The notes beneath the pieces were generated by a model. That model searched no databases and was not told the DNA's origin. It saw only the letters and a list, made by a program, of their open reading frames with translations. DNA of 30,739 nt, from positions 1 through 30,739 of the forward strand of contig JBBCAX010000333.1 in NCBI GenBank assembly GCA_051382335.1. Direction: 5' to 3'. Made by a program: the position numbers and the translations under genes. Positions 1 to 20,454 of this stretch are shown here, piece after piece; position 1 is the first letter of the stretch, and every line of letters starts with the position of its first letter. This DNA comes from Deltaproteobacteria bacterium TL4 (lineage in GTDB: Bacteria; SAR324; NAC60-12).

Positions 1-2
1 AC

Positions 3-633: not shown

Positions 634-1068
634 ATGCCTTTACCGAGACAGCCCATGCAACACGAAACCGAATCCCTTTCCCCCAAGCCAGTCAATCCCT
701 CAACCACAACAAGGACTCTCATGGCTCAGCAGCCCGCATCGACGAATCCCGTCGCGAAAGTCGCAACAAAAAAACGAGTGGAAGTCTCAAGCCTGGGACT
801 TAAACTGGGTTCTACGGAAAACGCGCTGGCCAAGATCAAAGAAACGACCTCTGAGCCGCTCCAGGAAATGATTAACGCCATTAATGATTTTGTGAGCTGG
901 CTTTTTGACGCTGGCCGTGCCTTGACAGGCACGAGAGTTCCCCGAAAAACTCCGAAGCAGGGCGCAGAGACTCAGACCTCCAATGATCTTAAAGCGTTCG
1001 GACGTATGTTTTTGTTTACATCCCATGAAGTCGTTAAAAAACGAAAAAATGGTGATAAAAAATCTTAA
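634..1068 (+). CDS. Hypothetical protein upstream of the mamK paralog, carrying the shared C-terminal motif LFTSHEVVKKRK
   Basis: 144-aa ORF with GGAGG at 616-620; C-terminal motif matches the ends of ORFs 2715-4718 and 19186-20454. Start is uncertain. Confidence 0.65.
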   Translation: MPLPRQPMQHETESLSPKPVNPSTTTRTLMAQQPASTNPVAKVATKKRVEVSSLGLKLGSTENALAKIKETTSEPLQEMINAINDFVSWLFDAGRALTGTRVPRKTPKQGAETQTSNDLKAFGRMFLFTSHEVVKKRKNGDKKS

Positions 1069-1095
1069 TAGGAACCCCCTGGCTTGAGAGGCGCA

Positions 1096-2568
1096 ATGAG
1101 TACCAGAACATCAAAAACCCCTAAAAACAGAACCAACTCGTTCCCCCAAAACAAAAAAGAGACGAGAGGAAATTCCAATTCTGTGCGAACAACTTCCGGT
1201 CCTGGTCAAAGGATGGCCGCAAGATCCGCGGAGGGGCATGCCGGCAATACCAAACCAGGTCCCGAGGAGATCCAAAGGAAAGTCGGCCCTACCAAAAAGA
1301 ATCTCGGCGGTGTCAAGAGTCAGGTCAGCACTCCCGCGACCAGTTCGAGCAACTCCAAGCCCGGTACCATTAAAACAGCAAGTGAGGCGATTAAAACAAC
1401 GCGAGAGGCGGTCCGGAATGTCCCCAACGCCATAAAAGCGGCAACAGAAGCGCTGATGTCCGAACGGGAATCGCAAGAAGCGGCACAGGAACAAGAAAAA
1501 TCTACTTCTGCCGCTGCACCTTTTCCTGAAAAACGAGCCGGTGGTCCTAAACTGCTCAGAATAGGCATTGATTTGGGAACCGCGAAAACGGCGTTAATTT
1601 CTGAGAGGGGAATCCGAACACTCATGCCTTCGGTAGTTGGCTATCCCAGAGATATCATCAGTACAAAACTATTAAACGCGAATAAAGCGATTGGTGAGGA
1701 GGCTTTAAAGAATCAATCGCATCTCAACCTTTACTACCCCATCGAACACGGTGTGATCACAGAAAACAGTGAAATTGACATTGAAGCAGCAAAAGATCTG
1801 CTCCAGCATGTCTTGAATCTGGCCCAGCCTGAACCAGGAGATAAATTAGCGGTAGTCATTGGAACACCTTCCGCCGCTTCTTTTTCCGGCAGGGAGGCAC
1901 TCTTGAAGCTGGCAAAAGAAATGACGGATGTAACGCTGGTCGCGTCTCAGCCCTTTTTGGTTGCCTATGGGATGGATCGTTTGAGTCAGACGATTGTGAT
2001 TGATATCGGAGCCGGCACAACGAACATCTGTGCCTTGACAGGTTCCATTCCTCTCCCGGAAGATCAAGTGACCCTCACCAAAGCGGGAGATTCCGTGGAC
2101 ATGGTCTTGAGAACACTGATTTCAGAACACCATTTTGGCATACAGATAACCCAGCAATTTTCAAAAAAAATCAAGGAAAAATTCGGATTTGTCGGTGAAA
2201 CTGAAGAGCCGGCGCTCGTTCCTTTCCGAGAAAATGGAAGGCCAAGAATGATTGATGTCACCAAGGAAGTTAAAGCAGCCTGTGAGACACTGATCACTCC
2301 CATTGTGGAAAATATCCAGGATTTGCTGTTGAGATTTGACCCTGAAGACCAGGGAACAGCACTTCAGAACATCTTCCTCGCAGGCAACAGTGCCAAAATC
2401 AAAGGCTTGGATCAAGCCCTTGCAGAGGCACTTGCGGAATACGGTGAGATTCATATTCGAAGAGTTGAAGATCTGGATTACGCAGGATGCAACGGCGCTT
2501 TGAAAATCGCGACGGAGTTCCCTATTGAGCATTGGAATCAAATTGGTGATGTCATTGGATCCTTGTGA
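1096..2568 (+). CDS. mamK: MamK-like actin homolog with about 150-aa low-complexity N-terminal extension
   Basis: Actin phosphate motifs IGIDLGTAKT and IDIGAGTT, plus SVVGYPRDII; colinear with 20480-21511 through to HWNQIGDVIG. ATG 1096 follows GAGG (ORF track starts at TTG 1084). Confidence 0.9.
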   Translation: MSTRTSKTPKNRTNSFPQNKKETRGNSNSVRTTSGPGQRMAARSAEGHAGNTKPGPEEIQRKVGPTKKNLGGVKSQVSTPATSSSNSKPGTIKTASEAIKTTREAVRNVPNAIKAATEALMSERESQEAAQEQEKSTSAAAPFPEKRAGGPKLLRIGIDLGTAKTALISERGIRTLMPSVVGYPRDIISTKLLNANKAIGEEALKNQSHLNLYYPIEHGVITENSEIDIEAAKDLLQHVLNLAQPEPGDKLAVVIGTPSAASFSGREALLKLAKEMTDVTLVASQPFLVAYGMDRLSQTIVIDIGAGTTNICALTGSIPLPEDQVTLTKAGDSVDMVLRTLISEHHFGIQITQQFSKKIKEKFGFVGETEEPALVPFRENGRPRMIDVTKEVKAACETLITPIVENIQDLLLRFDPEDQGTALQNIFLAGNSAKIKGLDQALAEALAEYGEIHIRRVEDLDYAGCNGALKIATEFPIEHWNQIGDVIGSL

Positions 2569-2635
2569 GTTGTGAGTTTCCACCCCGATACTGAAAAAAA
2601 TTTCATCTAACCTTGACCAACAATAATAAACAACT

Positions 2636-2665
2636 GGCAGTCTGGGATGGCGTTCCCAGACTGCC
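2636..2665. repeat. Perfect 12-bp stem-loop between the mamK paralog and the next gene
   Basis: ggcagtctggga-tggcgt-tcccagactgcc; no U-tract, so it may be an mRNA-stabilising or REP-like hairpin rather than a terminator. Confidence 0.6.
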
Positions 2666-2714
2666 CTCAATTCCTTACTGATACCCTACCAAGACTTAGA
2701 CTAAGCAGGACAAA

Positions 2715-4718
2715 ATGGATAATGAACTTCAACCTGAATCAGGTACGACTTTAGAAGAACTACAGGCAATGCTCCAACAATTACAGCTCACCTTTAATAG
2801 TGAAAAAGAAAATTTGGAGGACATCCAGAAAAAATACCAGGAGGCTCAGTTGGAGCTTCAATACATGCAACAGGAACGGGATCAACTTAAAGCCGAAATC
2901 GCCCCGGAAGCCTCTTGGGAGGGACCTGAGGCGTTGATAAACAACGCTGAGGCCACCGCAGCAGATACAACCGAAGAAAATCAAGAGCTTTCAGTTCAAG
3001 CGGAAGCAACTGTGGCAGAGGCGGAAGAACCCACACCAGAAAACCAACCTGAAGCCGTGCCTGCTCCTGAAGCCGAAGAGCCAGAGCCTGCCGGAGAAGC
3101 GTCTCAAACTGAAAACGCTTTAAATGGCATCATAGCCCGGATCGAAAATCTGGAAACCTTGGATGAAACTGAAAAAAATAAAACAGAAGCCCTGCGGCAA
3201 AAACTGGATCATGCGCCACCTCAGCCTGTTCAGCAGTTGAAAGAGGAACTTGAGGCTGAAAAAAAGAAAGTCGTAACGATTCAGCACAAACTGGACAGCG
3301 TGCAGAGCCAACTCCTTGCCCTTCATTCCTTGAAGGAGGAATTTACCGCTAAACAGCGAATCCTTGAAGACTTCCTTCAAAAAAATGAAAACACCGCCAG
3401 TCAACTCCTTGCCCTTCAGCATCTCAAAGAGGAGTTTTTAATGGAAAGAAAAGAGATAGTGGCACTGCAACAAAAGTTTGAAAACATGGACACACAACTC
3501 CTGGCGCTTCAGTACTTGAAAGAGGAATTCTCCGCTGAAACTAAAAAAATGGTCGCCCTTCAACAAAAGTTTAAAAATCTGGAGACTCAGCTCCTGGCGC
3601 TTCAGTACCTGAAAAATGAATTTACCTCCGAAACTCAAAAAATGGTGCTGCTCCAGCAAAAACAGGACAGCATTGACCCGATGATTTTGGAAATCAAACA
3701 CCTTAAAGAGTTAATAATTTCTGATAAAAAAAAAGTGGAGGTGCTTTATGAAAAAAACGAGGATCACTCCGCTGAAATGTTGGCACTGCAACAGAAATAT
3801 AGCCGATTGATGGCCGGACTCCTGGAACTGAAGCAGGAAAGTGACAAAGCTGAGGAAAGAAGAAGTCAACAGGCAGAAACTCGGTCTATCATTACCACTC
3901 AAGCGATAGAAGAGAACGAGCCTCAAAGAACAGCAGCCCCCCGCCCTCATGAAAAAGAGGAACCAAAAACGGGGGGACTCCCGTTTACGGCCCTTAAGGA
4001 AGAACACTTAACCCCTGAGCAGGAAAATAAACTCAAAAGAGCCGCTTCTATCTCCCTTGGAAATATCATAGGCAGTCTTTCTGCGACCAGACATCGCAAG
4101 GAGGACGATGATAACGATAACAACGATACCGAGGATCATGACGGTGATAACCATGTATTCGGTGGTTTTTTTAAAAAACGAAAAGGACATGAATCCCTTT
4201 TAGAAATCCTGGAGGCAGAATTTTCCCCATCCGAACCCCTGCATGGCCATCCGAAAGCCCCCTCTTTAGTGAAAATTCAAACGGCAATCCCGGACTCCGT
4301 CTCGCAGAACAACACGCTGGAAATTCAACCGGTCGCCCCAGATTCCGTCCAGGATAATGACGCAAATCCCGATGTTTCCCCGGAACAGAACACGGAATTA
4401 CCAGTCGCGGACAATCTCCTGGAGACACAAGGAAAAGAGCTTCCACAAAAAGAAGAAACGAACAACCCCCAGGTGAAAGAACCGACTCCTGTTTCTGACC
4501 TCAATCCCTCCGTGGAAATTCAAAAGTCGGAGGAGTGGCTCAAATCAGAAAAAACTGAACCGAACGTGAGTGAGACTTCTGAACCCCGGAAAGCAACCCC
4601 TTCCATTCCCAAAGAATGGTCTGACTCCATGAGTGCCAAAGCGTCAGAGGTTCGGAACTATACCTCAAAACTTTTTACGTCCTACGAGGTCAGAAAAAAG
4701 CCGAAGCGCTCCAAATGA
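2715..4718 (+). CDS. Coiled-coil, acidic repeat protein; partial paralog of 19186-20454 and candidate MamK-associated scaffold
   Basis: 667 aa with AGGA SD; E/Q/K/L-rich coils, 31-aa repeats, acidic Pro-rich linkers, C-terminus LFTSYEVRKKPKRSK. Confidence 0.85.
   Translation: MDNELQPESGTTLEELQAMLQQLQLTFNSEKENLEDIQKKYQEAQLELQYMQQERDQLKAEIAPEASWEGPEALINNAEATAADTTEENQELSVQAEATVAEAEEPTPENQPEAVPAPEAEEPEPAGEASQTENALNGIIARIENLETLDETEKNKTEALRQKLDHAPPQPVQQLKEELEAEKKKVVTIQHKLDSVQSQLLALHSLKEEFTAKQRILEDFLQKNENTASQLLALQHLKEEFLMERKEIVALQQKFENMDTQLLALQYLKEEFSAETKKMVALQQKFKNLETQLLALQYLKNEFTSETQKMVLLQQKQDSIDPMILEIKHLKELIISDKKKVEVLYEKNEDHSAEMLALQQKYSRLMAGLLELKQESDKAEERRSQQAETRSIITTQAIEENEPQRTAAPRPHEKEEPKTGGLPFTALKEEHLTPEQENKLKRAASISLGNIIGSLSATRHRKEDDDNDNNDTEDHDGDNHVFGGFFKKRKGHESLLEILEAEFSPSEPLHGHPKAPSLVKIQTAIPDSVSQNNTLEIQPVAPDSVQDNDANPDVSPEQNTELPVADNLLETQGKELPQKEETNNPQVKEPTPVSDLNPSVEIQKSEEWLKSEKTEPNVSETSEPRKATPSIPKEWSDSMSAKASEVRNYTSKLFTSYEVRKKPKRSK
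3234..3795 (+). repeat. Intragenic 93-nt (31-aa) tandem repeat, about 6 degenerate units
   Basis: QLLAL..LK[EN]EF units start at 3309, 3402, 3495 and 3588, an exact 93-nt period. Confidence 0.85.
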
Positions 4719-4725
4719 TTGTTTC

Positions 4726-4760
4726 GCTGAGTTCTGAGATTCCATGCTCAGCTTTTTTTT
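4726..4760 (+). terminator. Putative intrinsic terminator
   Basis: gctgag...ctcagc stem followed by T8, just after the stop at 4718; loop is long. Confidence 0.45.
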
Positions 4761-4842
4761 CAATTCACGCTGGACACTATTTTTGAAATCAGATAGAAAC
4801 CCATGTGAAGTACCATAAAACTAAACGAAATCAGGAGGAATT

Positions 4843-5049
4843 ATGCCAATTGGAGAGATAGAAACAGCTGGAACGGGTATTCAGATCATAACCAAAGGAG
4901 TCGCCGTCGCTAAAGGTGCTGGAATTTTCACAGGACTCGGTGTTGGGATTGGGACCCTTGGGCCTTACATTTTGGTGGTTCTCTTGGTGATCGGTGCCGT
5001 TTTGTGGTACATCAATGATAGCAAAGCAGAAGCAACACTTTCCCAATAA
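4843..5049 (+). CDS. mms6: Mms6-like small Gly-rich magnetosome membrane protein (Mms6/MamG/MamD type), copy A
   Basis: AGGAGG SD; GAGIFTGLGVGIGTLGP followed by a TM helix; sits just upstream of mmsF; paralog of 15732-16007. Confidence 0.6.
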   Translation: MPIGEIETAGTGIQIITKGVAVAKGAGIFTGLGVGIGTLGPYILVVLLVIGAVLWYINDSKAEATLSQ

Positions 5050-5161
5050 CTTAAAATTATTTCACGACACTGCCTCAAAAGGTGAGTTCTCCGGTCTTTT
5101 TTAGCTTTTTTTGTGGACTGGGTAGTCACAATTATTTCAACTAAGAAAGGATCAGCGTGTT

Positions 5162-5485
5162 ATGGAAGCAAAGCATGTTTTAGAGAGTGAGTTCTCTATG
5201 AAAACCTACATTTTGGCAATCATGAGTTACCTTGGAATCCTCTGCTTGATTCCCGTTTTATTGAATGAAAAAGATGAGTATGTTTATTTTCATGCCAGAC
5301 AGGGTTTGGCCTTATGGATCTGGAATGTAATTGCTTTTTTTGCGCTTTATATTCCTGGAATTGGACAATTTTTCTTTGGTGTGTCTACATTTCTAATCAT
5401 CATTTTTTCACTGATCGGTTTGATTTCCGTGATATTGACCAAAGCCTGGAAGCTTCCGTTGGTTGGAAATATTGCTGGTGTTTAA
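5162..5485 (+). CDS. mmsF: MmsF/MamF-family magnetosome membrane protein, copy A
   Basis: SYLGILCLIP, DEYVYFHARQGLALWIW and AWKLPLV motifs; three hydrophobic segments. Confidence 0.85.
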   Translation: MEAKHVLESEFSMKTYILAIMSYLGILCLIPVLLNEKDEYVYFHARQGLALWIWNVIAFFALYIPGIGQFFFGVSTFLIIIFSLIGLISVILTKAWKLPLVGNIAGV

Positions 5486-5598
5486 AAATCGTCAGTTCTC
5501 GGCCATCAGTTCTTAGCCTTTTAAGGGAGCTCTCTTTTGCTCCCCAAGACCTCGTTTTGGTGAGTGACGCCTTGTGGTTGACTCACAAGCCCATTCTG

Positions 5599-6000
5599 TT
5601 ATTGTGCCGGTTTTTGATCAGAACTTGGCCTGATTGCCAGCCGTGACAAATCAATGATGGACTGAGTTTTTAAAAGAAAATCAAAACCAAGAATTCCTTG
5701 AATTCCTAAACCATAATCTACTGCGCCAATTTCAATTGGGAAGTTTTCAACTCTCATTGTTCCTAATGCAATTTGATCAATCATTTTCTCTACCACAAAT
5801 TCCGATCCTCCTACCCCACTGATGGTATGGATTTCATCTTCGGGCTCAGGTAATAAATCGATTTTTGCTAACTCATCTATATCAAATATTGTTCCAGCAG
5901 AGCCTGTATCAACTAAAATCTGTTTTAGGGTAATTGTCTTATTTCGATGGATTAGATTCACTGCTATAAATGGCAAGCCCTCATCAATTTTGATTTTCAT
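5599..6000 (-). CDS. Retropepsin-like (clan AA) aspartyl protease
   Basis: ILVDTGS catalytic motif, ISGVGG flap, GILGFDFL C-terminal motif. Confidence 0.85.
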   Translation of the reverse strand: MKIKIDEGLPFIAVNLIHRNKTITLKQILVDTGSAGTIFDIDELAKIDLLPEPEDEIHTISGVGGSEFVVEKMIDQIALGTMRVENFPIEIGAVDYGLGIQGILGFDFLLKTQSIIDLSRLAIRPSSDQKPAQ

Positions 6001-6257
6001 CTATTCCCTCTCACGCCTAACCATCGACGTTCTAAAATGTTTAAATATTCTCGACAAGTATGTAGAACATAGAGTTCTCTTTGAGGAGACTTATGATGAA
6101 TCTCTTTATAACTTCGCATAGCACTCAAGGAGTCAGAAAATAGATCCAATATTGAAAGTTGATCCAAAACACGTTTCCCAGATTCTGAATGTGCTTGGAC
6201 GGCCTCAACTAAAACCCATTGGTTCGGATAACGCTGACGAACAGTTTCCCAATTCAT
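5997..6257 (-). CDS. Small conserved hypothetical protein (DUF5678-like) coupled to the aspartyl protease
   Basis: MNWETVRQRYPNQWVLVE N-terminus; GAGG SD; 4-nt overlap with the protease gene. Confidence 0.7.
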   Translation of the reverse strand: MNWETVRQRYPNQWVLVEAVQAHSESGKRVLDQLSILDLFSDSLSAMRSYKEIHHKSPQRELYVLHTCREYLNILERRWLGVRGNR

Positions 6258-6275
6258 AGGAACCTCTTTAATAAC

Positions 6276-6328
6276 TCATCAGTGATGAGATCTCTATATA
6301 ATGGCTCACGGATTACACGGTTTTTGTA
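6276..6328 (+). repeat. Left copy of an imperfect long inverted repeat
   Basis: tcatcagtgatga...ggctcacggattacacgg matches the reverse complement of 10629-10691. Confidence 0.6.
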
Positions 6329-6548
6329 GTGTGAAATTATGATTTTATCCATCATTTTTCCTTCGATTTAGTATGACTTGAGAGTTATTACCCCTTTGTT
6401 TAAATATAACTTAAACAGCCTTGATCAACAAGTAAATTAGGAATCAAGAATGTACTTAATTGTTTTGTCCTTAGGCTGTATAATTTGGCTAGATTAGGGA
6501 GATCCTGATTCCTAGGAGGTTGTCCGAGAATAGAAGTTGAGCCTAAGC

Positions 6549-6622
6549 AGGGTGCCACTTAAGCGAAGCAAGCGCACCAGCCACAGATTGTTCGGTGTGC
6601 TCGCTTCGCTTAAGCGCACCCT
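6549..6622. repeat. REP-like long hairpin
   Basis: agggtgccacttaagcgaagcaagcgcacc pairs with ggtgtgctcgcttcgcttaagcgcaccct. Confidence 0.75.
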
Positions 6623-6783
6623 CCATGAAGTGTTCCGCCTTAAGTAGGTAGCCGCTAAATAAAGACATGCTTAATTTTAACCTATTGTTTTCAAAGCCTT
6701 ATTTCTAGAGGAATCAGATTCCTCAAAAATGTTCAAAGTCCAGTAAATTGCTACAAAAAATGTTTGCGCTATGAGAGTCCGTG

Positions 6784-6809
6784 TTTTTTAGCGTTTTTAG
6801 CGGACTTTC
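6784..6809 (+). repeat. 26-nt dispersed repeat, copy 2
   Basis: Identical to 479-504. Confidence 0.85.
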
Positions 6810-6971
6810 TCTTTTAAGCTGAGTCCTTCCAGGAACACAAAAAAAACAGGAGCAGACTTGTCAATCAAGAGATTATTTGTCAAAAATAGAATGAGCGTAA
6901 ATAATTAACAAAAATCACTGACACCCCTTCTATACCAAACAGCTTTTTTACTCCCTTATTGGAGTTCCTCA

Positions 6972-9900
6972 ATGAAACGACAAATCCGGCACCAATGGCT
7001 TGTGCTGCTATTAGCGTTACTGACCGCATCCCTGGCTTTTGGGGCTGAGCCGAATAACCACTACATTGTCCTGATCAACGGGACAGGATCCATGATCAGA
7101 GGTGTTTCCTATGATACACAGGGAGGTACGATTGTACGGGAGCTTTTGCCGCGAAAATTGGTTTACGCTTTGAGGAAAGCCCGTATCATCGCTCTGGAGA
7201 AAGAAAGTCTCACCCAGATTTTGAGCCTTGACGAGAATAAAGAGTCCTTGATTCCCGCATTTGAGGATGGGGATTATGTGGAAATTCTCAACTTTGGCTG
7301 GCTGGCTCAACCCGGCGCGACTTTTTCGGTCAAAGATTACATCAGCAACCAGTGGAGTGCTTGTGATAAACAAAGCGTCCTCAACAAGTTGAACGAAATC
7401 CAAAGTCAGAATCCCTCCGAAGGGATGGATTCCGAACTGTCCTACAACTCAGATTATGGATTCAGCACGTTGGCGGTGCCTGCCGCAATCTCAACAAAAC
7501 ATACCCGGCAACCGAGCGGTTGTAAAGTTCCTGAGGGGCGGGTTTTCGTATTCATGATTACCGACTATGACTATAATACCTCCGACCGTAACTCCGAATT
7601 GGCTTCATTCCAAAAACAATACAACATGAGTGGCGCCTTTGAAATCATGGGCCAGTTCAATCGCTATTACCAAAACCCTGTCACCTGGTATCACCAGGAT
7701 AAGGATGACCAGTATCCAGAGGAGTCCTCGCTGGTAAAAACGCATTTGGAAGAACGCATCACCCGAACCAACAGATCCCAAAAACTTAAAGAAGTAGTCA
7801 GTTATTTAATCCTCGTAGGTTATGAGCTGATTCCTAATGTGATTGCCGACTTTGAAAAACAACTCCAATGGCATAAAACATCGAATCCCACACAGCTTGT
7901 AGTCCATCAGACCGAAAAGCAACTCGTGATGCTGGAACCCTTCAGTTTTCCGCTCATCTCCAGCAGTCTTTATTGTCACAAGAATAAATGCCAGAAATTT
8001 CAACTTTTTTCCCCTGATTTCACGACAACGCCCAAACCCTCAATCATCGAAATTCCTTCTGCCGCCCATTCTTCTTTTGACCTGGTTTGGGAACCTTCAG
8101 AAGATCCCAACTGGAAAATCCCGGATCAATTGACGGTTGAAATTAAAATTGAAAGTGAAGATCCTCTGCATGGAAAGCTTGTCCGGGTTTACTCCAAAAC
8201 GTATCCAAAACTGAATATTGTCAAACCAGAGATTTCCCGCGCCGAAGACGGCACAGCGCTGGAGGGCCCACTCACAGTCAAGGTTCCCTCTCCAAGTGAT
8301 GCGGACGCAACTTCGGATTTCTTTCAAAATGAAGCCACCTCGGAAGAGAGATCAACCCCCGCGACTTACCGCGATGGGGATGCAACCTCACCCCTCGCAA
8401 CCTATGAAGAAACACAAAGGACGGCTTCCGCAGCAAAAGCGTCTCAAGCCGAGAAAACTTCTGCCTTCGATCATTTAATCCGCATTCTTGGTTTGATTTG
8501 TGCTCTTCTCGCCTTCTGGTATTGGCGAAAATATAAAAAGGAACGGGAAAGGCTCCAGCAAGCCCCTGCCAAAAAAGAAACAACGCCTGTCCTTCAAAAA
8601 GATCCAAAACTGGAACAGCAAGCTCAGCAAATCAATGAATTAAATCTCAAAGCAGAAGTCCTGAAAAAACAATACCAACAGGAAATCGAAAAACTCAAAA
8701 CCGAAACGCTGTCCAAAGAGCAGTTGGTTGAAAAACAAGCTCAGCAGATCAAAGACTTGAACAACACTAAAGCCTTGTTGGAACAGCAGCATCTAAAGCA
8801 ATTGGATGAACTCAAAACCGAAACGCTGTCCAAAGAGCAGTTGGTTGAAAAACAAGCTCAGCAGATCAAAGACTTGAACAACACTAAAGCCTTGTTGGAA
8901 CAGCAGCACCAAAAGGAGTTTCAAACGTTGATTGAGAAAGACAATCAATTGAAAGAACTCCGGGAGAGTCCAGAGAAAAAGAAACAACAGATTGATGAAA
9001 TTCGTGATCAGCACCAATGGACTGAAACTCCATCCGTCAATGTCGGGGCTGTCATAGAACCCCTAAAAGTTGAAGACACGCTCACTGGGGAAACTGAAGC
9101 CGCTGAGGATCAAAGTAAAACTTCCGAGAAAATAGAACTCACAACAGACGAAAATGAACTCGCAACAGACGAAACGGAGAGGGTTGGGGAAGTTAGAAAA
9201 GTAGAAACGGAGCAGGTTGAGATGGTCGAGAAAATCATGGAAGAAGCAACTGAGGAACCCACAGATAACGTTGGGGAAACCATGGAGGAAAAAACTCAGG
9301 AGAAAGTTCCGGAAGAAGAACCCTCCGAAGGAAAAGAAGTCGTGGAGACCCCGGAAGCAACAACTGAAATAGAAACGTCGGAACGCATCCCTGAAGAGGA
9401 AAAAACCGACCAGTTATTAGGCGAAACGCAGAAAACCCCAGACGCAACCGATGTAACGGACTCGACAACTGAGACTGATCTTACTGAAGAGTTTCAGGAA
9501 GAAGACACGGCTGAGGTACGGGATGAAACTGAAGACCTGAAGGAACAGGAAACAGCTAACGTACTGGATGAAGCGAAAGAAAAAGAAATGACTGACGAAG
9601 AGGTCGAAGACCTGAAGGAACAGGAAACGACTAATGTACTGGATGAAGCGAAAGAAAAAGACATAACTGACGTGCTGGATGTTTCAAAAAAAGAGGCAAC
9701 GGCTAGCGTACAGGAAGAAGTTGAAGACCTGAAGGAACATGAACTGACTAATGTCCTGGATGAAGCGAAAGAAGAAGAAACGGCCGAAGACCTGAAAGAA
9801 GAAATGGTCGAAGACCTGAAGGCAGAAGAAACAGCGAACGTCCTGGATGAAGCGAAAGAGGCAGAAATGACTGAAGTACTGGATGAAACGAAAGATCTGA

Positions 9901-10406
9901 AGGAACAAGAGACGGCTGAAAAAGCACCCTTACAACCAAGGCAAAAGGCAGAAGACACAGACCATTCCGGGCACTTCGTAGTCTTGACACGAAGCCAGTC
10001 ATTATCCATGCAGCGGCTACAGGAAATCGAGGAACTGAATGCCAGATACGAAACGTTAATAGGGAAGCAGCAGCAGGAAATCCAAGAGTTGAAAGCTAAA
10101 TACGAAGCACTCTTGCAAAAAAATGAAAATGTGGAAGGCTCCAAGGAATACGAAGCTTTGATGAAAGAGCTACATCAGGCCATTACCGAATTGAATCTGA
10201 AATATGACACTTTAAAGACAGAATATCGACAAAAGCTGAAAGTACTGAATCTGAAGTATGAGGCGTTAATGAGTCAACGCCTCCCCAGTAAAAAAGTCGT
10301 TCGCTACCGAATGCGTCAAGTTGAAGTGGTTCCCTTGTTTGAAGCGTTGACAAGTTTGATAAAAAAAGTGTTTCAACTGAGCTTTTACCACAAACAGAAG
10401 GATTAA
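6972..10406 (+). CDS. Large single-pass membrane protein: signal peptide, vWA-like exported domain, TM helix, cytoplasmic coiled coils and acidic repeats (McaA-like architecture)
   Basis: 1144 aa with GGAG SD; signal peptide ending AFGA; YIVLINGTGSM (MIDAS-like) and VFVFMITD; TM LIRILGLICALLAFWYW followed by RKYKK; E/D/T-rich repeats. Confidence 0.8.
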   Translation: MKRQIRHQWLVLLLALLTASLAFGAEPNNHYIVLINGTGSMIRGVSYDTQGGTIVRELLPRKLVYALRKARIIALEKESLTQILSLDENKESLIPAFEDGDYVEILNFGWLAQPGATFSVKDYISNQWSACDKQSVLNKLNEIQSQNPSEGMDSELSYNSDYGFSTLAVPAAISTKHTRQPSGCKVPEGRVFVFMITDYDYNTSDRNSELASFQKQYNMSGAFEIMGQFNRYYQNPVTWYHQDKDDQYPEESSLVKTHLEERITRTNRSQKLKEVVSYLILVGYELIPNVIADFEKQLQWHKTSNPTQLVVHQTEKQLVMLEPFSFPLISSSLYCHKNKCQKFQLFSPDFTTTPKPSIIEIPSAAHSSFDLVWEPSEDPNWKIPDQLTVEIKIESEDPLHGKLVRVYSKTYPKLNIVKPEISRAEDGTALEGPLTVKVPSPSDADATSDFFQNEATSEERSTPATYRDGDATSPLATYEETQRTASAAKASQAEKTSAFDHLIRILGLICALLAFWYWRKYKKERERLQQAPAKKETTPVLQKDPKLEQQAQQINELNLKAEVLKKQYQQEIEKLKTETLSKEQLVEKQAQQIKDLNNTKALLEQQHLKQLDELKTETLSKEQLVEKQAQQIKDLNNTKALLEQQHQKEFQTLIEKDNQLKELRESPEKKKQQIDEIRDQHQWTETPSVNVGAVIEPLKVEDTLTGETEAAEDQSKTSEKIELTTDENELATDETERVGEVRKVETEQVEMVEKIMEEATEEPTDNVGETMEEKTQEKVPEEEPSEGKEVVETPEATTEIETSERIPEEEKTDQLLGETQKTPDATDVTDSTTETDLTEEFQEEDTAEVRDETEDLKEQETANVLDEAKEKEMTDEEVEDLKEQETTNVLDEAKEKDITDVLDVSKKEATASVQEEVEDLKEHELTNVLDEAKEEETAEDLKEEMVEDLKAEETANVLDEAKEAEMTEVLDETKDLKEQETAEKAPLQPRQKAEDTDHSGHFVVLTRSQSLSMQRLQEIEELNARYETLIGKQQQEIQELKAKYEALLQKNENVEGSKEYEALMKELHQAITELNLKYDTLKTEYRQKLKVLNLKYEALMSQRLPSKKVVRYRMRQVEVVPLFEALTSLIKKVFQLSFYHKQKD
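8692..8908 (+). repeat. 117-nt (39-aa) intragenic tandem duplication
   Basis: About 100 nt identical at 8692-8791 and 8809-8908 (LKTETLSKEQLVEKQAQQIKDLNNTKALLEQQH). Confidence 0.9.
9530..9920 (+). repeat. Acidic intragenic repeats of the EDLKEQETANVLDEAKE type
   Basis: Recurrent gaagacctgaagg and ctggatgaagcgaaaga units. Confidence 0.85.
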
Positions 10407-11051: not shown

Positions 11052-11059
11052 GGAGCGTT

Positions 11060-12538: not shown

Positions 12539-12549
12539 CACGATGCATT

Positions 12550-13296: not shown

Positions 13297-13323
13297 AAAT
13301 GATCACTAACGCATAGGTTTGAT

Positions 13324-14115: not shown

Positions 14116-14117
14116 AA

Positions 14118-14570
14118 ATGTCGATCAGAAGTAAACAAAGAATTCGCATGGTTTATGTCACCATCATCTTGATCAGCCTGGTTTTTGCGCTAACAGCAGG
14201 TTTAATTGTCAAGCATGACTTGGACGTTAAAGAGCTAGGCATCATTTGGGGAAGAATGCCCAGGCCCACGGAACCTCGTTTAGTGGGCTCAATCCTGGAA
14301 CGTTTTACCCCCAAAGAGCAGAAAACAGTGATTCGACGCATTCCCCGGATTAGCGCCAATATGCGGATGCCTCATCCTTACTGGGGACAATGCGACCGAT
14401 GCCATTTGTTTAAGGACAAAACCGTCATCCACAGCATGACCCCCGTTGGCAAAGCCTTGGGAGCGTTTTCTGAAACCTACAAAAAAGTAGGCCCCCCCAT
14501 TTTGCCGGATTCCTCTATGCCCCACCCTGCTGCAGGACGCTGCATCAAATGCCACGATATCGTGATTTAA
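14118..14570 (+). CDS. mamT: MamT magnetochrome cytochrome
   Basis: N-terminal TM; MPHPYWGQCDRCH and PHPAAGRCIKCHDIV. Confidence 0.92.
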   Translation: MSIRSKQRIRMVYVTIILISLVFALTAGLIVKHDLDVKELGIIWGRMPRPTEPRLVGSILERFTPKEQKTVIRRIPRISANMRMPHPYWGQCDRCHLFKDKTVIHSMTPVGKALGAFSETYKKVGPPILPDSSMPHPAAGRCIKCHDIVI

Positions 14571-14709: not shown

Positions 14710-14813
14710 TATAGATGTTCAGAAAATTAACGACACCGTAGAAGAGGCGTCTCGCCTCTTTCAAGGAGCGGGACGCTCCTTCTACTGTGAATTTATTTAA
14801 ATGAACATCTATA
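14710..14813. mobile_element. Second MITE-like element of the tatagaYgttca family, enclosing a GTAG-type REP hairpin
   Basis: Right end 14788-14813 matches the reverse complement of 10418-10443 at 25 of 26 nt; left end tatagatgttca; internal gtagaagaggcgtctcgc...gcgggacgctccttctac (14738-14785). Confidence 0.72.
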
Positions 14814-14821
14814 CGAAGAAA

Positions 14822-15082
14822 ATGCAACTGAATAAAAAACATGGGAAGGTCCTTGAAACGATATTTAAGGATCCAACTCAGTCAGATATTTTATGGAGTG
14901 ATATTGAAAAACTCATGTATGCCTTAGGTGCAGAGATTAGTGAAGGAAGTGGATCCAGAGTAAGAGTCGCTTTAAATGGGGTACGGATGGTCTTTCACCG
15001 TCCTCATCCTAAGAAAGAAACAGATAAAGGTGCGGTCAAATCGGTTCGTAGATTTTTCCAAACAGCGGGAGTTAGGCCATGA
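14822..15082 (+). CDS. hicA: HicA family toxin (type II TA)
   Basis: WSDIEKL..ALGAEISEGSGSRVRVALNG...FHRPHP...DKGAVKSVR; the upstream ATG 14801 lies within a MITE TIR. Confidence 0.92.
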   Translation: MQLNKKHGKVLETIFKDPTQSDILWSDIEKLMYALGAEISEGSGSRVRVALNGVRMVFHRPHPKKETDKGAVKSVRRFFQTAGVRP

Positions 15083-15408
15083 TGGAATATAAGGGGTATA
15101 TTGGATATGTTGTTTTCGATGACGAGGCAGAGATTTTTCATGGTGAAGTCATCAATACCAGAGATGTTATTACCTTTCAGGGACAAAGTGTCTCAGAAAT
15201 TAAAAAAGCATTTATAGACTCTGTTGAGGATTACTTAGAATTCTGCGAACTACGTGGAGAAAATCCAGAAAAACCATTCTCCGGTAAATTATCATTAAGG
15301 TTAGATCCTGAAATGCATCGTAAAATCTATGTCCAGGCCAGAGGTCAAGATAAGAGTTTAAATTCTTGGATAATGGAAACATTACAACACGCAATAGAAA
15401 TATCTTAA
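15079..15408 (+). CDS. hicB: HicB family antitoxin
   Basis: MEYKGY...FHGEV...DVITFQG...SVEDYL.FC...PEKPFSGK, C-terminal RHH (SLNSWI); ATGA overlap with hicA. Confidence 0.93.
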   Translation: MMEYKGYIGYVVFDDEAEIFHGEVINTRDVITFQGQSVSEIKKAFIDSVEDYLEFCELRGENPEKPFSGKLSLRLDPEMHRKIYVQARGQDKSLNSWIMETLQHAIEIS

Positions 15409-15731: not shown

Positions 15732-16007
15732 ATGATTGATGATATTGTTGAAGCAGGAAAAGAGGGCTTGGAGTATTTAGGCATTGTTGATTTTTCCGAT
15801 TGTGGCGTTACAGCGTGTGCTGGCGAAGGTATTTTTGCGGGACACGGCTTTTCCGGTTTTTCAGCGCTTAAAGGCGCAGGGATTTTCGGCATCGGAGGAA
15901 TAGGGTTTAGCGCTTTAGGGCCTATCATCCTGTTGATAGTCGCTCTTGGCGCTATTATGTGGTATTTGAATGCCAGAGAAACCGAAGAAGAAGCCTCGAC
16001 GGATTAG
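15732..16007 (+). CDS. mms6: Mms6-like small Gly-rich magnetosome membrane protein, copy B
   Basis: AAGGAGG SD; KGAGIFGIGGIGFSALGPIIL TM; acidic tail ETEEEASTD. Confidence 0.62.
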   Translation: MIDDIVEAGKEGLEYLGIVDFSDCGVTACAGEGIFAGHGFSGFSALKGAGIFGIGGIGFSALGPIILLIVALGAIMWYLNARETEEEASTD

Positions 16008-16079
16008 GCTCCATTCGGAAAGAGTAAGGTGAATAGTAGTAATTTAAATAATTGAATGAGTAAATTTGGAAGGAGTATT

Positions 16080-16406
16080 ATGGATGCAAAAAAGGTTCTG
16101 GAAAGTGAGTTTTCAATGAAATCTTATTTTTTGGCAATGTGCAGTTATCTCGGCATTTTATGTCTGGTCCCGGTTGTTCTTAACAAGAATGACGAGTATG
16201 TTTATTTTCACTCACGTCAAGGATTGGTTTTATGGATTTGGAGCGTTCTTTCCATTTTCGCTTTGTATATTCCAGTCATCGGACGTCTTTTCTTTGGATT
16301 TTCCGCATTTTTAATTTTGATTTACTCCTTCGTCGGCATGATTTCTGTCATCTTTACCAAAGCGTGGAAACTTCCGTTTGTTGGTGATTTGGCCGACGGT
16401 TTTTAG
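16080..16406 (+). CDS. mmsF: MmsF/MamF-family protein, copy B
   Basis: SYLGILCLVP, DEYVYFHSRQGLVLWIW and AWKLP; ATG 16080 follows AGGAG and aligns with the copy A start. Confidence 0.87.
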   Translation: MDAKKVLESEFSMKSYFLAMCSYLGILCLVPVVLNKNDEYVYFHSRQGLVLWIWSVLSIFALYIPVIGRLFFGFSAFLILIYSFVGMISVIFTKAWKLPFVGDLADGF

Positions 16407-16829
16407 TAAGCTGAGATTTCCTGCTTATGAAAATATTCTGCGAAGTTTTTGCCTGAGCCCTACCCCGGTCGAGGTGAAATTCTGGTAGAATTTTAATTGC
16501 GATTGAGGTTTGTGGAGATGAAGATCGCGTCGTAAACGGACTCTGCTTTCTGACGCCTGTCTGCTCGGGAATGGTGAGAGAGACTTGGTTTTCGTACCGG
16601 ATCAAATCTGATTCGCAGTGTTGTGGCTCTAATATCCTTTGTCAAAGTAGACCCAAAGTTGAGGGACTCCCGCTGGTGCTAAGCTTCTTTGTTAATTTCC
16701 CGCTTTTCAAACTTGATATTCCTACCAATCTTTATTAAGGTCTGTGTGAATTGTGGATTTTTGTATCGATTAAACGTTAAGTACTTCAAGGATACTAACA
16801 CCTGAATAATGAAAGAAGGAGTCAAGGAG

Positions 16830-17027
16830 ATGACAAATGTAATTGTTGGCGTAGTCGCCTGTGCGCTGGGATTTTGGGGGTTATACACGTGGTGGTGGTC
16901 TGTTGTGGAACTTCTGCGTGGTTTTGCGCCTGTAGCTTTAGTTTTATTTGGAATTATTGCCGTTGGAGCCGGTATTACCGCAAAGCGAACCAGTATCAGT
17001 GATGACTCAACCGAAGAAGAGGGATAA
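16830..17027 (+). CDS. mamI: MamI
   Basis: Two TM helices with GLYTWWWSVVELLRG; directly upstream of mamE; alternative start 16809. Confidence 0.9.
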   Translation: MTNVIVGVVACALGFWGLYTWWWSVVELLRGFAPVALVLFGIIAVGAGITAKRTSISDDSTEEEG

Positions 17028-17036
17028 GGAGCGGTT

Positions 17037-19052
17037 ATGGCCTTGAAAAAAGGATCTGCCAACAATGGGCCTTGTGCCAAAAGGTACCGAAAGTTTTTTT
17101 TCATCATTGCTGGGATCGCTTTGCTGTTTATGGCCGGAGAGCGCTATTGGTATCAGCCTAATTTTGGGGACAACCAGGTAAATCAACCTACGTTCATGCA
17201 GCAATTCAATAACCGTAATGCGGTTGCGCCAGCCCAGTCACCTTACGTACAAAATGCCAATGCCGGAACACAGCTCAATTATGGCCCAGGTATCCGTGCG
17301 GAACAGGGCCCCCCCGCTTACAGACAAAATGCTGCTTCTGGAACACAGCCCTATTATGGCCCGGGTGCCCGTGCGACAACAGTGGCGATGCAGCAGAATG
17401 TAATGACTACTCCGGTGCCGGGCCTGCCGAGAAACGACGGCAATAACGCACCCCTTCCAGGGAACGTAAACCAGCAGGATTCAAGTGCCCCAACCCCGGC
17501 AACCATGGTGGCAGAATTTGCCAAACAAACAGTAGTGAATATCAGCGCGGTGCAGTTAATCACTCCTCTCACAGCAAATCAACCCGCTCAAACAGGTGTT
17601 AAATTCGCATCTCCATTTAGTGGTAAATCCATTGAAAGCATAGGTTCAGGAATCATACTGACGCCAGATGGTTACATCCTCACCAATTATCATGTCGTCG
17701 AAAAAGCAACCGAGATTTACGTGAGTGTCTTTGTCCCAAATGGGGTGACCCGTCATCATGCGGAAGTGATTCAACTTGCGGAAAGATTGGATCTGGCTTT
17801 AATCAAAATTGAGCCCAACGCCCTTTTGATTCCTGCGGCTTTAAGTACTGAAAACCGCATTATCCGGGTGGGCGAAGAAGTATTGGCGATTGGAAGCCCT
17901 TTTGGACTGGAGCAAAGTGTCAGTAAAGGCATCATCTCCGGTTTGGACAAATCAATCACCATTGATGGCATCACCCACAAAAGACTGATTCAAACCGATG
18001 CGGCCATCAACCGGGGAAACTCTGGAGGCCCCTTGGTTGACATGATGGGATATGTGGTTGGCATCAACACGGCGATTTATACCCCCACGGCCGCTTTTTC
18101 GGGAGTTGGGTTTGCGGTTCCCTCAACTCAGGCGCTTGAGTTTGTCGGTGATGTTATCCCTTTGCCTAATGTACAACCGAATTTGAACGCGCATGTACGA
18201 GCGTTTGGTATTGCTGCCCTTAATGCACCGCCTATTGTTTCAGGTGCTGTCAGGATACATGAAGACCGAGGGCCTTGTGAAACGTGTCACCAGATCATGC
18301 CTTTCACTGCGGCGCCGCCCGCTGGTGGGCAAAAGGCCGCATTTATAGTGCCCAAAACTCCAACGAATGCCCCTCAGTTTGCGATGTCCCCTTACTTCCA
18401 GGCTCAAGGAGCTCCAATCGCTTTCAACCCTCCAGGCTCAAGTCTCGATTGGATCGGCGCGGAACTTCAAAACATGACCGAAGTGCTCAGCAAGGCGTTT
18501 AACTCCGATATTACCGGTGGAATATTTTTAAGCAATGTCCGGCCCGATTCTATCGCGGACCAAGGGGGTCTGCAAGCAGGTGATATTGTTTTTCGTGTTG
18601 AGGGAAAAAAATTAAGCACCACGGAAGATCTCCTCAATTTCACTCAAGGCATGGAAGGCACCGCAAGAGTTTCCGTGATCAGGGATGGAGTGAAGCAGGA
18701 TGTTTACGTAGAACTTGACAACACTAATCCCCCTGGAGTAGTAAAAGTCGCAGGAACCGTCGCAACACCCGCGGCACCAACCCCGGTAACCGTTGTTCCA
18801 ACCCTGACTGAGCTTGAGATCTTGGGCATGGAGATGTCTCCTAACACGAATGGAGGCGCCTTGATAGGTGAAATCAGCCTGAATTCCGTAGCCTACGCCG
18901 CAGGACTTCGGATGAATGATGTGATTGTGTCTGTCGATAAAAAACCCATCGACACGCTGGATACGATGAACAAAAGCCTTGATGTGGCCAATTTAAACAA
19001 TTTGATTGAAGTGAAGCGCAATGGACGGAGTATATTCTTCACGCTTAAGTAG
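17037..19052 (+). CDS. mamE: MamE HtrA-like protease: TM, trypsin domain, magnetochrome, two PDZ
   Basis: LTNYHVV, DLALIKI and DAAINRGNSGGPL; HEDRGPCETCH; two PDZ-like repeats. Confidence 0.95.
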   Translation: MALKKGSANNGPCAKRYRKFFFIIAGIALLFMAGERYWYQPNFGDNQVNQPTFMQQFNNRNAVAPAQSPYVQNANAGTQLNYGPGIRAEQGPPAYRQNAASGTQPYYGPGARATTVAMQQNVMTTPVPGLPRNDGNNAPLPGNVNQQDSSAPTPATMVAEFAKQTVVNISAVQLITPLTANQPAQTGVKFASPFSGKSIESIGSGIILTPDGYILTNYHVVEKATEIYVSVFVPNGVTRHHAEVIQLAERLDLALIKIEPNALLIPAALSTENRIIRVGEEVLAIGSPFGLEQSVSKGIISGLDKSITIDGITHKRLIQTDAAINRGNSGGPLVDMMGYVVGINTAIYTPTAAFSGVGFAVPSTQALEFVGDVIPLPNVQPNLNAHVRAFGIAALNAPPIVSGAVRIHEDRGPCETCHQIMPFTAAPPAGGQKAAFIVPKTPTNAPQFAMSPYFQAQGAPIAFNPPGSSLDWIGAELQNMTEVLSKAFNSDITGGIFLSNVRPDSIADQGGLQAGDIVFRVEGKKLSTTEDLLNFTQGMEGTARVSVIRDGVKQDVYVELDNTNPPGVVKVAGTVATPAAPTPVTVVPTLTELEILGMEMSPNTNGGALIGEISLNSVAYAAGLRMNDVIVSVDKKPIDTLDTMNKSLDVANLNNLIEVKRNGRSIFFTLK

Positions 19053-19185
19053 TGCTATTTTAAGTGTTTGTCAGGTATTAGGGGCTGGTACTGGCAGCAA
19101 TTCGTGAGTAATCAACATCGCCTGAAAACCCGCACGAAAGTGCTCTGTTTGAATAACCTGTAAAAGGGGAGTGTGAATAGGAGAT

Positions 19186-20454
19186 ATGAGTTTGATTCAG
19201 AGAAAACTATCAACTAAAACTAAAAATCCTGAGAGTTTTGGTAGCAACACCAATGTCAGGATTTCCGGTACTGAAAATCCATGGAAAGCCGAACGGCAGG
19301 TAGTGAGACCTGCGATTCAGGTAAAAATAACGCCGAGGACCAAAAACCTGGATGACTTTATGCCCCGTAAAAACGTGGTGGCCTCTGGTGTTGACAACCC
19401 ATGGGTCGATACCCCTGCCGTAACAACAGCATCTATTCAAAGAAAGACGGCGTCCAGAATTCCAGAAAATCCCTGGAATTTCGAAAAACCCAAATCCCCT
19501 GCAACGGTTGAAGTCAAATCCATATCCTTCGGACGCACGATGCCTCAGACAAACGTACAGAGCGTGTCTTTTGAAGAAAATCCCGCGTTGAAGGAAATGC
19601 AGACAACCCTGCTGCAATTGCAAAACGCGTTTGAAAACGAAAAAAAGAAGATCTCCGATCTTCATCAAAGCCATGACAGTACTTTAAAAGCACTGGAAAA
19701 CGCCAAAAAAGAACGAGATCAACTCCAAGCTCAAAGATCTCAAAAAGAGATTGAGGAACAGCGACGAGCGGAAGAACAGAGAAGGACGGAAGAGCAAAGA
19801 AAAGCGGAAGAGCAAAGAAAAGCGGAAGAACAAAGAAAAGCGGAAGCCGCGTTGCGTGAAGAGCAAAGGATGCAGAGAGAAGCGGAAGCCGCATTGAATG
19901 AAATGAAAGCAAACATCCAAAAGCTCCAGGAGGCTTACCGACAGGAACAAGAAAAAATGGCGGAATTGGAGCGAGTGCAGACCCAAACACGCAATGAGCT
20001 GCGAACAGTTCAAAAAGAGCAGGCTCCGTCAACAGTTAGAAGCCCTCAGAAAACACCTGTTGAAACTAAAGTTGAAAGTCCTCAGAAGATCATCCTTGAG
20101 GCCCGACCGGCACCGGCCCGAGAGCAGCAAAACACGGATACCCCAGTCGCTTCAAATCAGACTGCGGCGCTTGCGCCAAGAAAGAAGAAAAGAACGGTTG
20201 CCGTTTCAGTGGTGAGAGGTCCGTCCAGGATGGTCTTAGACTCTATCCCACAGGCAAAGGAAAAAGTCACAACGTTCATAAAAAAGAAATCGCAACCTGC
20301 TGAACCAAAAGCAGAAATTCAAGTGGTTAAAAAAACAACGGAGGATTCTAAGTTGGGATTCGGAGCATTTAAGGGATTCGGCTTTGCAAGTCAGAATTCG
20401 GGTAAAAAATTGGTTGAATCTTATGAAATCGTAAGAAAGCCTAAACGTCATTAA
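19186..20454 (+). CDS. Coiled-coil protein in the mamJ position (between mamE and mamK), candidate MamK adaptor
   Basis: 422 aa with AGGAG SD; three NPW motifs, EEQRKA repeats, C-terminus LVESYEIVRKPKRH. Confidence 0.85.
   Translation: MSLIQRKLSTKTKNPESFGSNTNVRISGTENPWKAERQVVRPAIQVKITPRTKNLDDFMPRKNVVASGVDNPWVDTPAVTTASIQRKTASRIPENPWNFEKPKSPATVEVKSISFGRTMPQTNVQSVSFEENPALKEMQTTLLQLQNAFENEKKKISDLHQSHDSTLKALENAKKERDQLQAQRSQKEIEEQRRAEEQRRTEEQRKAEEQRKAEEQRKAEAALREEQRMQREAEAALNEMKANIQKLQEAYRQEQEKMAELERVQTQTRNELRTVQKEQAPSTVRSPQKTPVETKVESPQKIILEARPAPAREQQNTDTPVASNQTAALAPRKKKRTVAVSVVRGPSRMVLDSIPQAKEKVTTFIKKKSQPAEPKAEIQVVKKTTEDSKLGFGAFKGFGFASQNSGKKLVESYEIVRKPKRH

Follow-up and report, generated by a model that had tools for sequence, protein, structure and literature searches.

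A lineage-specific tail motif shared by mamK-adjacent, probably MamJ-like proteins in SAR324 magnetosome gene clusters

The window analysed here, the whole of a 30,739-nucleotide (nt) contig of Deltaproteobacteria bacterium TL4 (GenBank:JBBCAX010000333.1; contig C333 of genome G000) from the SAR324 phylum, carries a magnetosome gene cluster with two copies of mamK, and three proteins encoded beside these copies, of 144, 667 and 422 amino acids (aa), were found to share a short basic motif near their C-terminal ends, hereafter called the tail. The tail was the only element common to all three; their bodies were not shared. Four further copies were found in three relatives (G003, G007 and G009), each from another genus of the family of G000, and permissive BLAST among the seven tail proteins returned chiefly the tail together with coiled-coil noise; outside the tail, the bodies gave no alignment with the window proteins at E<1e-3. 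The tail is a real, lineage-specific short motif borne by probable MamJ-like adaptors, and the question that it addresses is how the magnetosome is tethered to MamK outside Magnetospirillum.

The initial annotation of the window had placed the motif at the C-termini of these three proteins. Translation confirmed the three copies at their positions (Table 1), and the seven copies gave the consensus G-x-x-L-F-T-S-Y-E-V-x-K-K, in which the Leu, the Ser and one Lys were invariant. The copies lie near the ends of the proteins, not at the very end, as 4-12 mostly basic or polar residues were present beyond the 7-residue core in 7/7 copies. A PDZ-binding C-terminal ligand was considered and rejected because the core is not terminal; there was no hydrophobic free C-terminus, the core Val or Ile being trailed by these residues in every copy. 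A pattern derived from the three window tails matched only those three in 45,440 frames of G000, a test that is circular. When a hidden Markov model (HMM) was built from the window tails, the four tails of the relatives scored 30.2, 27.6, 25.9 and 11.2 bits, against a best background score of 8.5 bits among 9,090 C-terminal 30-mers; the reverse training, with an HMM from the relatives' tails, gave the window tails 20-28 bits against a background maximum of 7.6, and the leave-one-out scores (15.4-32.6) were each above all background C-termini. Within the tail core, identity at codon positions 1, 2 and 3 was 0.73, 0.93 and 0.44, respectively (21 pairs, 7 codons), and different codons were used in 64 of the 112 codon pairs encoding the same residue. 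Since the third positions were the most variable, selection acts on the peptide and not on the DNA, and a DNA element (repeat or promoter) at the gene ends was ruled out on this ground. It is therefore very improbable that the tail represents a chance likeness or a DNA element overlapping the gene ends: although the initial pattern came from three sequences of one window, the held-out copies in three other genera stood far above the background, and copies occur on both sides of mamK.

Among 88 genomes of the phylum, MamK above the cut-off of the NCBIfam model NF040964 (400 bits) was found in G000, G003, G007 and G009, with two copies in each (four genera of one family), and both window copies were above this value. 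The tail profile gave seven matches at E<=4.3e-9 in the 88 genomes, all being training copies and all located in these 4 mamK-bearing genomes, and the next best match had E=0.12. Each tail gene in the window was the direct neighbour of a mamK copy, as had been annotated, with 15 nt between the 144-aa gene and the first copy (mamK1), 146 nt between mamK1 and the 667-aa gene, and 25 nt between the 422-aa gene and the second copy (mamK2); the upstream mamE ends 133 nt before the 422-aa gene. In the relatives, the mamK at the head of mamK-L-M-O-A-Q-B was immediately preceded by the tail genes, namely a 706-aa gene in G009, tandem 345-aa and 116-aa genes in G003, and a 137-aa fragment truncated by the contig end in G007. 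All seven tail genes (7/7) thus adjoin mamK or stand one gene away, either upstream or downstream. The two additional copies of G000 flank mamK1, away from mamE, mamL, mamM, mamO, mamA and mamB; therefore, the tail is the one element common to the mamK neighbours.

Loci outside the SAR324 set were taken from the best 80 of 238 mamK stretches (76 of them non-SAR324) and the best 80 of 96 metagenome stretches (78 loci). The tail profile reached at most 6.7 bits in the former and gave no score >=8 bits in the latter; the tail was not found in these 154 mamK loci, in which deep-branching magnetotactic phyla are thinly represented. Of the seven training proteins, a wide tail search recovered only five among 2,528 candidates and again just these five when 1.84 billion representatives were searched (E<=0.001), and it returned nothing else; these blanks are weak because two known positives were missed. 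A locus search with a single protein turned up no relative.

The linkage has to be read against three further observations, which count against it as a pointer to MamK. In the relatives, 3/6 mamK copies (the second mamK of G003, G007 and G009) had no adjoining tail gene, one of them lying ~540 bp from a contig end and another on a 6.4-kb contig, and the 144-aa and 667-aa genes are therefore particular to G000. The four tail-bearing genomes are kin, hence not independent. In addition, Gly-rich and mamF-like genes are duplicated within the same blocks as mamK, and therefore linkage fails to single out MamK as the partner. The tail appears to be a SAR324 feature linked to mamK, though not one to one: the association expected from the initial annotation held for conservation in orthologues, confinement to the mamK-bearing genomes of the phylum and the position of all tail genes, and broke down for the relatives' second mamK copies.

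MamJ was searched with the NCBIfam model NF040987 (curated cut-off 100 bits), to which Magnetospirillum controls matched at ~550 bits. No match was obtained at E<=10 for 7/7 tail proteins, and none at E<=1 in G000, G003, G007 and G009, in agreement with the earlier statement that the window contains no recognisable mamJ. The gene order mamE-X-mamK was likewise confirmed, the mamJ slot (X) being filled by the 422-aa gene in the window and by the 706-aa gene in G009; in G003, the space between mamE and mamK is taken by two tail genes and a parA, in G007 the contig end truncates the slot, and the 144-aa and 667-aa genes lie outside it. In the MamJ sequences fetched, LLESSPW occurs at ~aa 40-70 (SPW at aa 43-70) and VPVEDLL lies ~70-77 aa before the end, and the SPW falls inside the span reported for the N-terminal interaction domain of MamJ in strain MSR-1, aa 23-81 (PMC10653835). 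The 422-aa protein and the G009 706-aa protein each have three NPW within the first 110 aa, and the G003 345-aa protein has one, with 0.01-0.02 expected per protein, and NPW was absent from three complete tail proteins (144, 667 and 116 aa). The 50 MamJ-core proteins (27.8k aa) contained 17 NPW, versus 18 in 1,552 other open reading frames (ORFs; 501k aa), a ~17-fold enrichment in the slot. A search with the NPW region of the 422-aa protein returned nothing among 58 candidates.

A second short motif, motif 2, has the form V-x-V-[ST]-S-L-[GF] after a basic patch and recurs on several magnetosome-cluster proteins. Besides the window copies (Table 1), it was found in a 149-aa gene product of G009 and, degenerate, in the 706-aa protein, and the 667-aa protein had only a weak candidate of 9.6 bits. 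Per protein, the leave-one-family-out p was <0.001 in three copies and 0.01-0.02 in another three, two further copies having 0.09 and 0.48; these values are optimistic because the motif was defined by eye. With a position-specific scoring matrix of the MamJ-core 7-mer, VEVSSLG of the 144-aa protein gave p=0.004 and the G009 149-aa protein gave p=0.001, with Glu changed to Ser in both; 22 other window proteins used as controls all had p >=0.15, and no match was found in the 422-aa or 667-aa protein. The idea that the reversed tail resembles motif 2, as one site bound in opposite directions, was unsupported: reversed tails outscored forward ones against motif 2, but shuffles of the seven core residues gave p=0.11-0.55, and therefore this likeness depends solely on where the basic patch lies.

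Slot and short motifs point to a MamJ-like adaptor as the probable ancestor of the mamJ-slot protein, and suggest that the 144-aa, 422-aa and 667-aa proteins are likely to be highly diverged MamJ-like adaptors with a SAR324-specific tail rather than a non-MamJ system. From the sequences, we infer that NPW and motif 2 are remnants of the N-terminal SPW and C-terminal VPVExL elements of MamJ; in our reading, the slot protein would have lost the membrane helix and acquired a new tail, which was later copied onto other bodies. The initial annotation had called these proteins non-MamJ adaptors, a view that is not borne out because the 422-aa protein and its orthologues keep the MamJ slot and MamJ-like short motifs, though the family model fails. 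In place of its further suggestion of an undescribed chain-assembly system, we see a lineage-specific motif carried by what are probably MamJ-like adaptors rather than a system of a new kind.

A number of results weigh against descent from MamJ. The tail proteins fail the MamJ model; a PW profile scored the SAR324 proteins at just 4.8-5.7 bits, which 8-13 of 3,751 background proteins equal; a 30-column HMM of the MamJ core plus helix scored >=0 in none of 8 SAR324 proteins; comparison of the tail with MamJ-type tails gave an hhalign probability of 0.2%; and the 667-aa protein is without NPW and has just the weak motif 2. The failures of the MamJ model and the core HMM and the low hhalign probability would also fit proteins unrelated to MamJ that took over the slot, the likeness of NPW and motif 2 being convergent, as would the shortness of the shared motifs (3-7 residues, spotted post hoc) and the character of the 422-aa protein, which is basic and helical versus the acidic, unstructured MamJ. 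The central acidic repetitive domain of MamJ, which is reported as dispensable, has no counterpart in the 422-aa protein, and the 667-aa protein is acidic yet off the slot. Such an origin, a matter separate from the partner of the tail, is a serious but less probable alternative, since the slot is the same, the motifs follow the same order (PW early, VxV core late), [NS]PW is strongly enriched in the slot across Alphaproteobacteria, Magnetococcia and SAR324, and two SAR324 proteins match observed core variants at 6/7 positions.

It was also noticed that a MamJ-type element, V-[PE]-V-E-x-L-[GF] with an amphipathic Gly-rich helix, is present in 50/77 genes upstream of mamK (40 of them training rows) in loci of Alphaproteobacteria, Magnetococcia and Gammaproteobacteria, and that the same element occurs in small 64-119-aa genes downstream of mamK (loci L033-L108, L109-L186). 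One Magnetococcales mamK-neighbour protein matched NF040987 with E=1.5e-4.

No membrane helix was found in the tail proteins. The best 19-residue hydropathy was 0.69-0.73 in the three window proteins, with Gly making up 0-8% of the last 60 aa, and 0.07-0.81 in the five full-length tail proteins measured, the G007 fragment alone reaching 1.29 with 18% Gly; a C-terminal Gly-rich, moderately hydrophobic membrane helix of the MamF-substrate type was thus missing in the window proteins. The 144-aa protein had no match in Pfam or NCBIfam, and family searches with the 667-aa protein gave weak SMC-type coiled-coil matches alone. A single-sequence model of the 422-aa protein showed one confident helix at aa 133-278 (146 residues) with disordered ends. 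For the 116-aa protein of G003, an Atlas search gave a best score of 0.81 and no family.

As to the partner of the tail, genomic context makes MamK our tentative candidate, and it is quite possible that the tail binds it. The tail would dock on the MamK filament in the form of a short, extended peptide, with its basic residues meeting an acidic MamK surface (the mamK2 product is acidic, with 53 Asp+Glu versus 38 Lys+Arg). At its opposite end, each protein would hold the magnetosome or another scaffold protein through an amphipathic helix, a coiled coil or motif 2, and the bodies of unequal length would serve as spacers; an adaptor would require one filament end and one cargo end. Such binding would explain the position of every tail gene beside mamK. 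The eight MamKs of the four SAR324 genomes formed a single clade (support 99/95) with substitutions of its own, which fits a lineage-specific partner. MamK-interacting regions have been described at both termini of MamJ (PMC3905215, a review), and mamJ-slot proteins invisible to BLAST are reported to function as MamJ in MSR-1 (PMC10653835; PMC9938234). It was noticed that MamK-like actins elsewhere (L113, L114, L117, L120, L124, L126, L128, L131, L136, L170-L176) have a downstream partner with an N-terminal hydrophobic segment, and that these partners end in a conserved H-[LY]-L-P-[GA]-[SG]-V-x-R, unlike the SAR324 tail. By analogy, a conserved short end motif on partners of other MamK-like actins may be counted as a precedent for docking of the tail on MamK.

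What speaks against MamK is that all support for it as the partner is genomic context, and that residues 334-426 of MSR-1 MamJ are reported to target the magnetosome membrane, C-terminal deletions retaining magnetoskeleton binding (PMC11628618). The strongest rival, which we regard as somewhat unlikely, is that the tail is a magnetosome-side signal read by a MamF-like or other magnetosome membrane protein, with NPW binding the cytoskeleton as in the MamJ layout. It draws on the reports that the C-terminal 93 aa of MamJ target the magnetosome membrane and bind MmsF/MmxF (PMC11628618) and that aa 23-81 of MamJ form its N-terminal interaction domain (PMC10653835), a span covering the SPW position of the MamJ sequences fetched, and on the tails of G007 and G003, which come after Gly-rich or amphipathic stretches; furthermore, one mamF-like gene is present in each mamK block of the window, and linkage is therefore compatible with a magnetosome-side tail as well. 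However, 6/7 proteins are without the hydrophobic Gly-rich helix typical of MamF substrates, the three complete tail proteins that have no NPW would be left with no MamK handle to account for their position, and profile similarity to MamJ tails was not detected. It is still less likely that the tail links tail proteins mutually or to some other scaffold, such as a coiled-coil network, a ParA-type positioner or the membrane protein with motif 2 described below, or that it binds anionic lipid. Its strand-prone, aromatic and basic composition, the long helix of the 422-aa protein and the heptad-like repeats of the 667-aa protein would suit this role, a coiled-coil network is reported to arrange chains in Desulfovibrio RS-1 (PMC12748827), and ParA-family genes adjoin the G003 tail gene and the second mamK of G009; however, the window has no ParA gene, an invariant Ser and a conserved acidic residue would be unexpected in a plain lipid-binding patch, and the proximity of tail genes to mamK would be left unexplained.

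With MamK retained as the preferred partner, a bolder and rather unlikely extension would be that the SAR324 chain is built by a modular code, in which NPW, basic-VxVSSL and the LFTSYEV-basic tail are spread over at least five proteins, ParA-linked genes and a VWA-like membrane anchor being among the carriers; in that case, the tail would be a portable ~12-residue MamK-docking peptide that replaced VPVExL of MamJ as the MamK of this lineage diverged. The candidate anchor is the 1144-aa protein, which has no tail and carries motif 2 at its cytoplasmic end. Its VWA domain is a lead from the Atlas search only (score 0.90), with no Pfam match, and the single-sequence fold of aa 22-429 was unusable (predicted local distance difference test score 35). 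A G009 orthologue (L207:10026-12713 (-)) was noticed, with 53% identity over the N-terminal domain and two strong motif 2 copies, located ~75 kb from mamK; with this query, no orthologue was found in G003 or G007. Regarding ParA, a family member at L025:1310-2134 (-) in the G003 cluster overlaps the 345-aa tail gene, and another at L021:18966-19748 (-) in G009 overlaps the second mamK. A ParA-type positioner may act on the magnetosome chain.

The genes recognised in the window are mamK (two copies), mamE (two), mamQ (two), mamP, mamT, mamI, mamM, mamO, mamA and mamB, together with genes for a MamV-like transporter, MamF-like proteins (two) and Gly-rich Mms6-like proteins (two); the ORF at 27260-27850, which we take to be mamS-like, had no family match. 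The cluster is mostly doubled (10734-14570 and 15732-28784), with two copies each of mamK, mamE, mamI-like (10734-11051 and 16809-17027), mamQ, mamF-like and Gly-rich genes, and it contains three CDF transporters (MamM, MamB and MamV-like). A hicA-hicB toxin-antitoxin pair (14801-15408) sits between both mam operons, and a 51-aa CZB zinc-binding fragment (Pfam E=2e-8) precedes the start-less motif-2 frame within 28781-29189, a region with a decayed or rearranged look. A promoter scan of positions 1-7000 was at chance level (8 found versus 9.0 expected).

The nearest MamKs in the titled genome collection had 60-67% identity and were labelled SAR324 cluster bacterium, as were the named tail-bearing proteins. 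Residue 285 of MamK2, in the stretch LAGGGS that is presumably the actin adenosine loop, is Asn in 7/8 SAR324 MamKs and Arg in the other, compared with Gly in 50/50 other MamKs, and other substitutions include Pro256 (8/8) in place of Asp/Glu, Asp88 and Ala52; these changes may alter nucleotide handling. In 3/4 genomes, the second mamK copy has a long low-complexity N-terminal extension of ~150, 175 and 65 aa (window 1084-1540; L021:17441-18997 (-); L027:3189-4412 (-)), and the three extensions look mutually unrelated by eye.

Table 1. Positions of the tail copies, tail proteins and related features in the window
Feature	Position	Strand	Remarks
144-aa protein	634..1068	+	Soluble, basic, isoelectric point (pI) 10.2; motif 2, amphipathic helix, tail; directly upstream of mamK1
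Motif 2 of 144-aa protein (aa 45-55), VEVSSLG	766..798	+	Leave-family-out p ~1e-6 per position; one residue off the MamJ-type core VEVESLG
Predicted amphipathic helix, aa 78-95 of 144-aa protein	865..918	+	Hydrophobic moment 0.57 vs 0.51-0.58 in MamJ-type tails
Tail copy 1, LFTSHEVVKKRK	1012..1047	+	LFTSHEV and basic run; near end of 144-aa ORF
mamK1	1084..2568	+	NF040964, 426 bits over aa 158-491; ~150-aa extension precedes actin core; ATG at 1096 possible start
667-aa protein	2715..4718	+	Acidic, pI 4.8; heptad-like repeats, acidic low-complexity spacers, tail; directly downstream of mamK1
Tail copy 2, LFTSYEVRKKPK	4671..4706	+	LFTSYEV and basic run, consensus form; near end of 667-aa ORF
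Gly-rich Mms6/MamG/MamD-like gene in mamK1 block	4843-5049	+	Weak MamD/Mms6/MamG matches
mamF-like gene in mamK1 block	5162-5485	+	DUF4870, E=0.007; 71% identity to second mamF-like copy
1144-aa protein	6972..10406	+	Signal-like start, VWA-like domain (lead), transmembrane helix aa 497-515, coiled coil, acidic repeats, motif 2 at aa 1113-1123; no tail
Second Gly-rich gene	15732-16007	+	Mms6-like
Second mamF-like gene	16056-16406	+	71% identity to first mamF-like copy
mamE copy upstream of mamJ slot	17037..19052	+	Best match NF040960, 356 bits, under cut-off of 800
422-aa protein, mamJ slot	19186..20454	+	pI 9.9; disordered ends, three NPW, long helix, degenerate motif 2, tail
Three NPW (aa 31, 71 and 95 of 422-aa protein)	19276..19476	+	Three NPW in 1/3,769 G000 ORFs >=200 aa; 0.014 expected
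Degenerate motif 2, aa 334-344 of 422-aa protein	20185..20217	+	Common to G009 orthologue; leave-family-out p 0.09 here, 0.014 in orthologue (per protein)
Tail copy 3, LVESYEIVRKPKRH	20410..20451	+	LVESYEI and basic run, most diverged window copy; near end of 422-aa ORF
mamK2	20480..21511	+	NF040964, 468 bits; heads mamK-L-M-O-A-Q-B
Start-less frame with motif 2	28929..29189	+	60% identity to 149-aa gene beside second mamK of G009; probably a remnant

No published description of the tail motif or of SAR324 chain adaptors was found in the literature searched, which covered a minority of subscription papers at most. The papers on Magnetococcia report mamJ as missing and the linker protein as unknown (PMC6783814, PMC11950176), and overlooked MamJ-like interactors have been predicted (PMC10653835). 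Since Magnetococcia are reported without mamJ, the MamJ core in mamK neighbours of Magnetococcia and Gammaproteobacteria is possibly the larger finding, and if the modular code held in addition, the MamJ-type adaptor would be ancestral and general, with a swappable handle. The reach of the tail is narrow so far, with four related genomes. With this locus, the candidate handles come down to three motifs, each 3-12 residues long, in proteins that otherwise share no sequence, which permits simple peptide-level tests; a minimal peptide that binds MamK would serve as a filament probe, and one that targets magnetosomes as a display tag.

Several known systems can be compared with the SAR324 proteins. 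McaA of M. magneticum AMB-1, as described in PMC12642318, has a periplasmic VWA domain, one transmembrane helix and a long cytoplasmic part, a layout that the 1144-aa protein, with its transmembrane helix and its putative N-terminal VWA-like domain, may share, whereas aa 22-429 of the latter had no match in five Magnetospirillum-type genomes, in which the presence of mcaA was not checked. The coiled-coil network of Mad20, Mad23, Mad25 and Mad26 in Desulfovibrio magneticus RS-1 (PMC12748827) is comparable in description, the chain there being organised by several soluble coiled-coil proteins whose genes accompany mamK; the window has mamF-like and Mms6-like genes, whereas MamF is listed in that paper among the factors absent from RS-1. 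Maq1 and other Magnetococcia genes upstream of mamK (PMC6783814, PMC11950176) are likewise described as lineage-specific occupants of the mamJ slot and proposed chain organisers, and in Magnetococcia, too, large and small mamK neighbours have one short C-terminal element in common; however, most of the Magnetococcia genes fetched have the MamJ-type VPVExLG core plus amphipathic helix, not the SAR324 tail, and Maq1 itself was not identified among the loci.

Further parallels are the MamJ-like proteins of Magnetovibrio blakemorei MV-1 (Mg-1g50; PMC10653835) and strain G2-11 (PMC9938234), which are also syntenic and missed by whole-protein BLAST; according to these reports they are alike in a few terminal residues only and restore chains in MSR-1. 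They were found via similarity to the MamJ termini, whereas the SAR324 tails have no measurable similarity to MamJ tails. From MamJ/LimJ of Magnetospirillum, the SAR324 proteins differ in giving no model match, in having no Gly-rich hydrophobic helix and in that one genome may encode as many as three proteins with the tail; where MamJ has acidic repeats, the 422-aa protein is basic and contains a 146-residue helix, and the LFTSYEV-basic tail is missing in all MamJ loci fetched. Similar to MamJ/LimJ, on the other hand, are the mamE-X-mamK slot, the hypervariable body with short conserved ends, a possibly corresponding [S/N]PW near the N-terminus, and the late VxV[E/S]xL[G/F]-like element, which is clear in the 144-aa and degenerate in the 422-aa protein.

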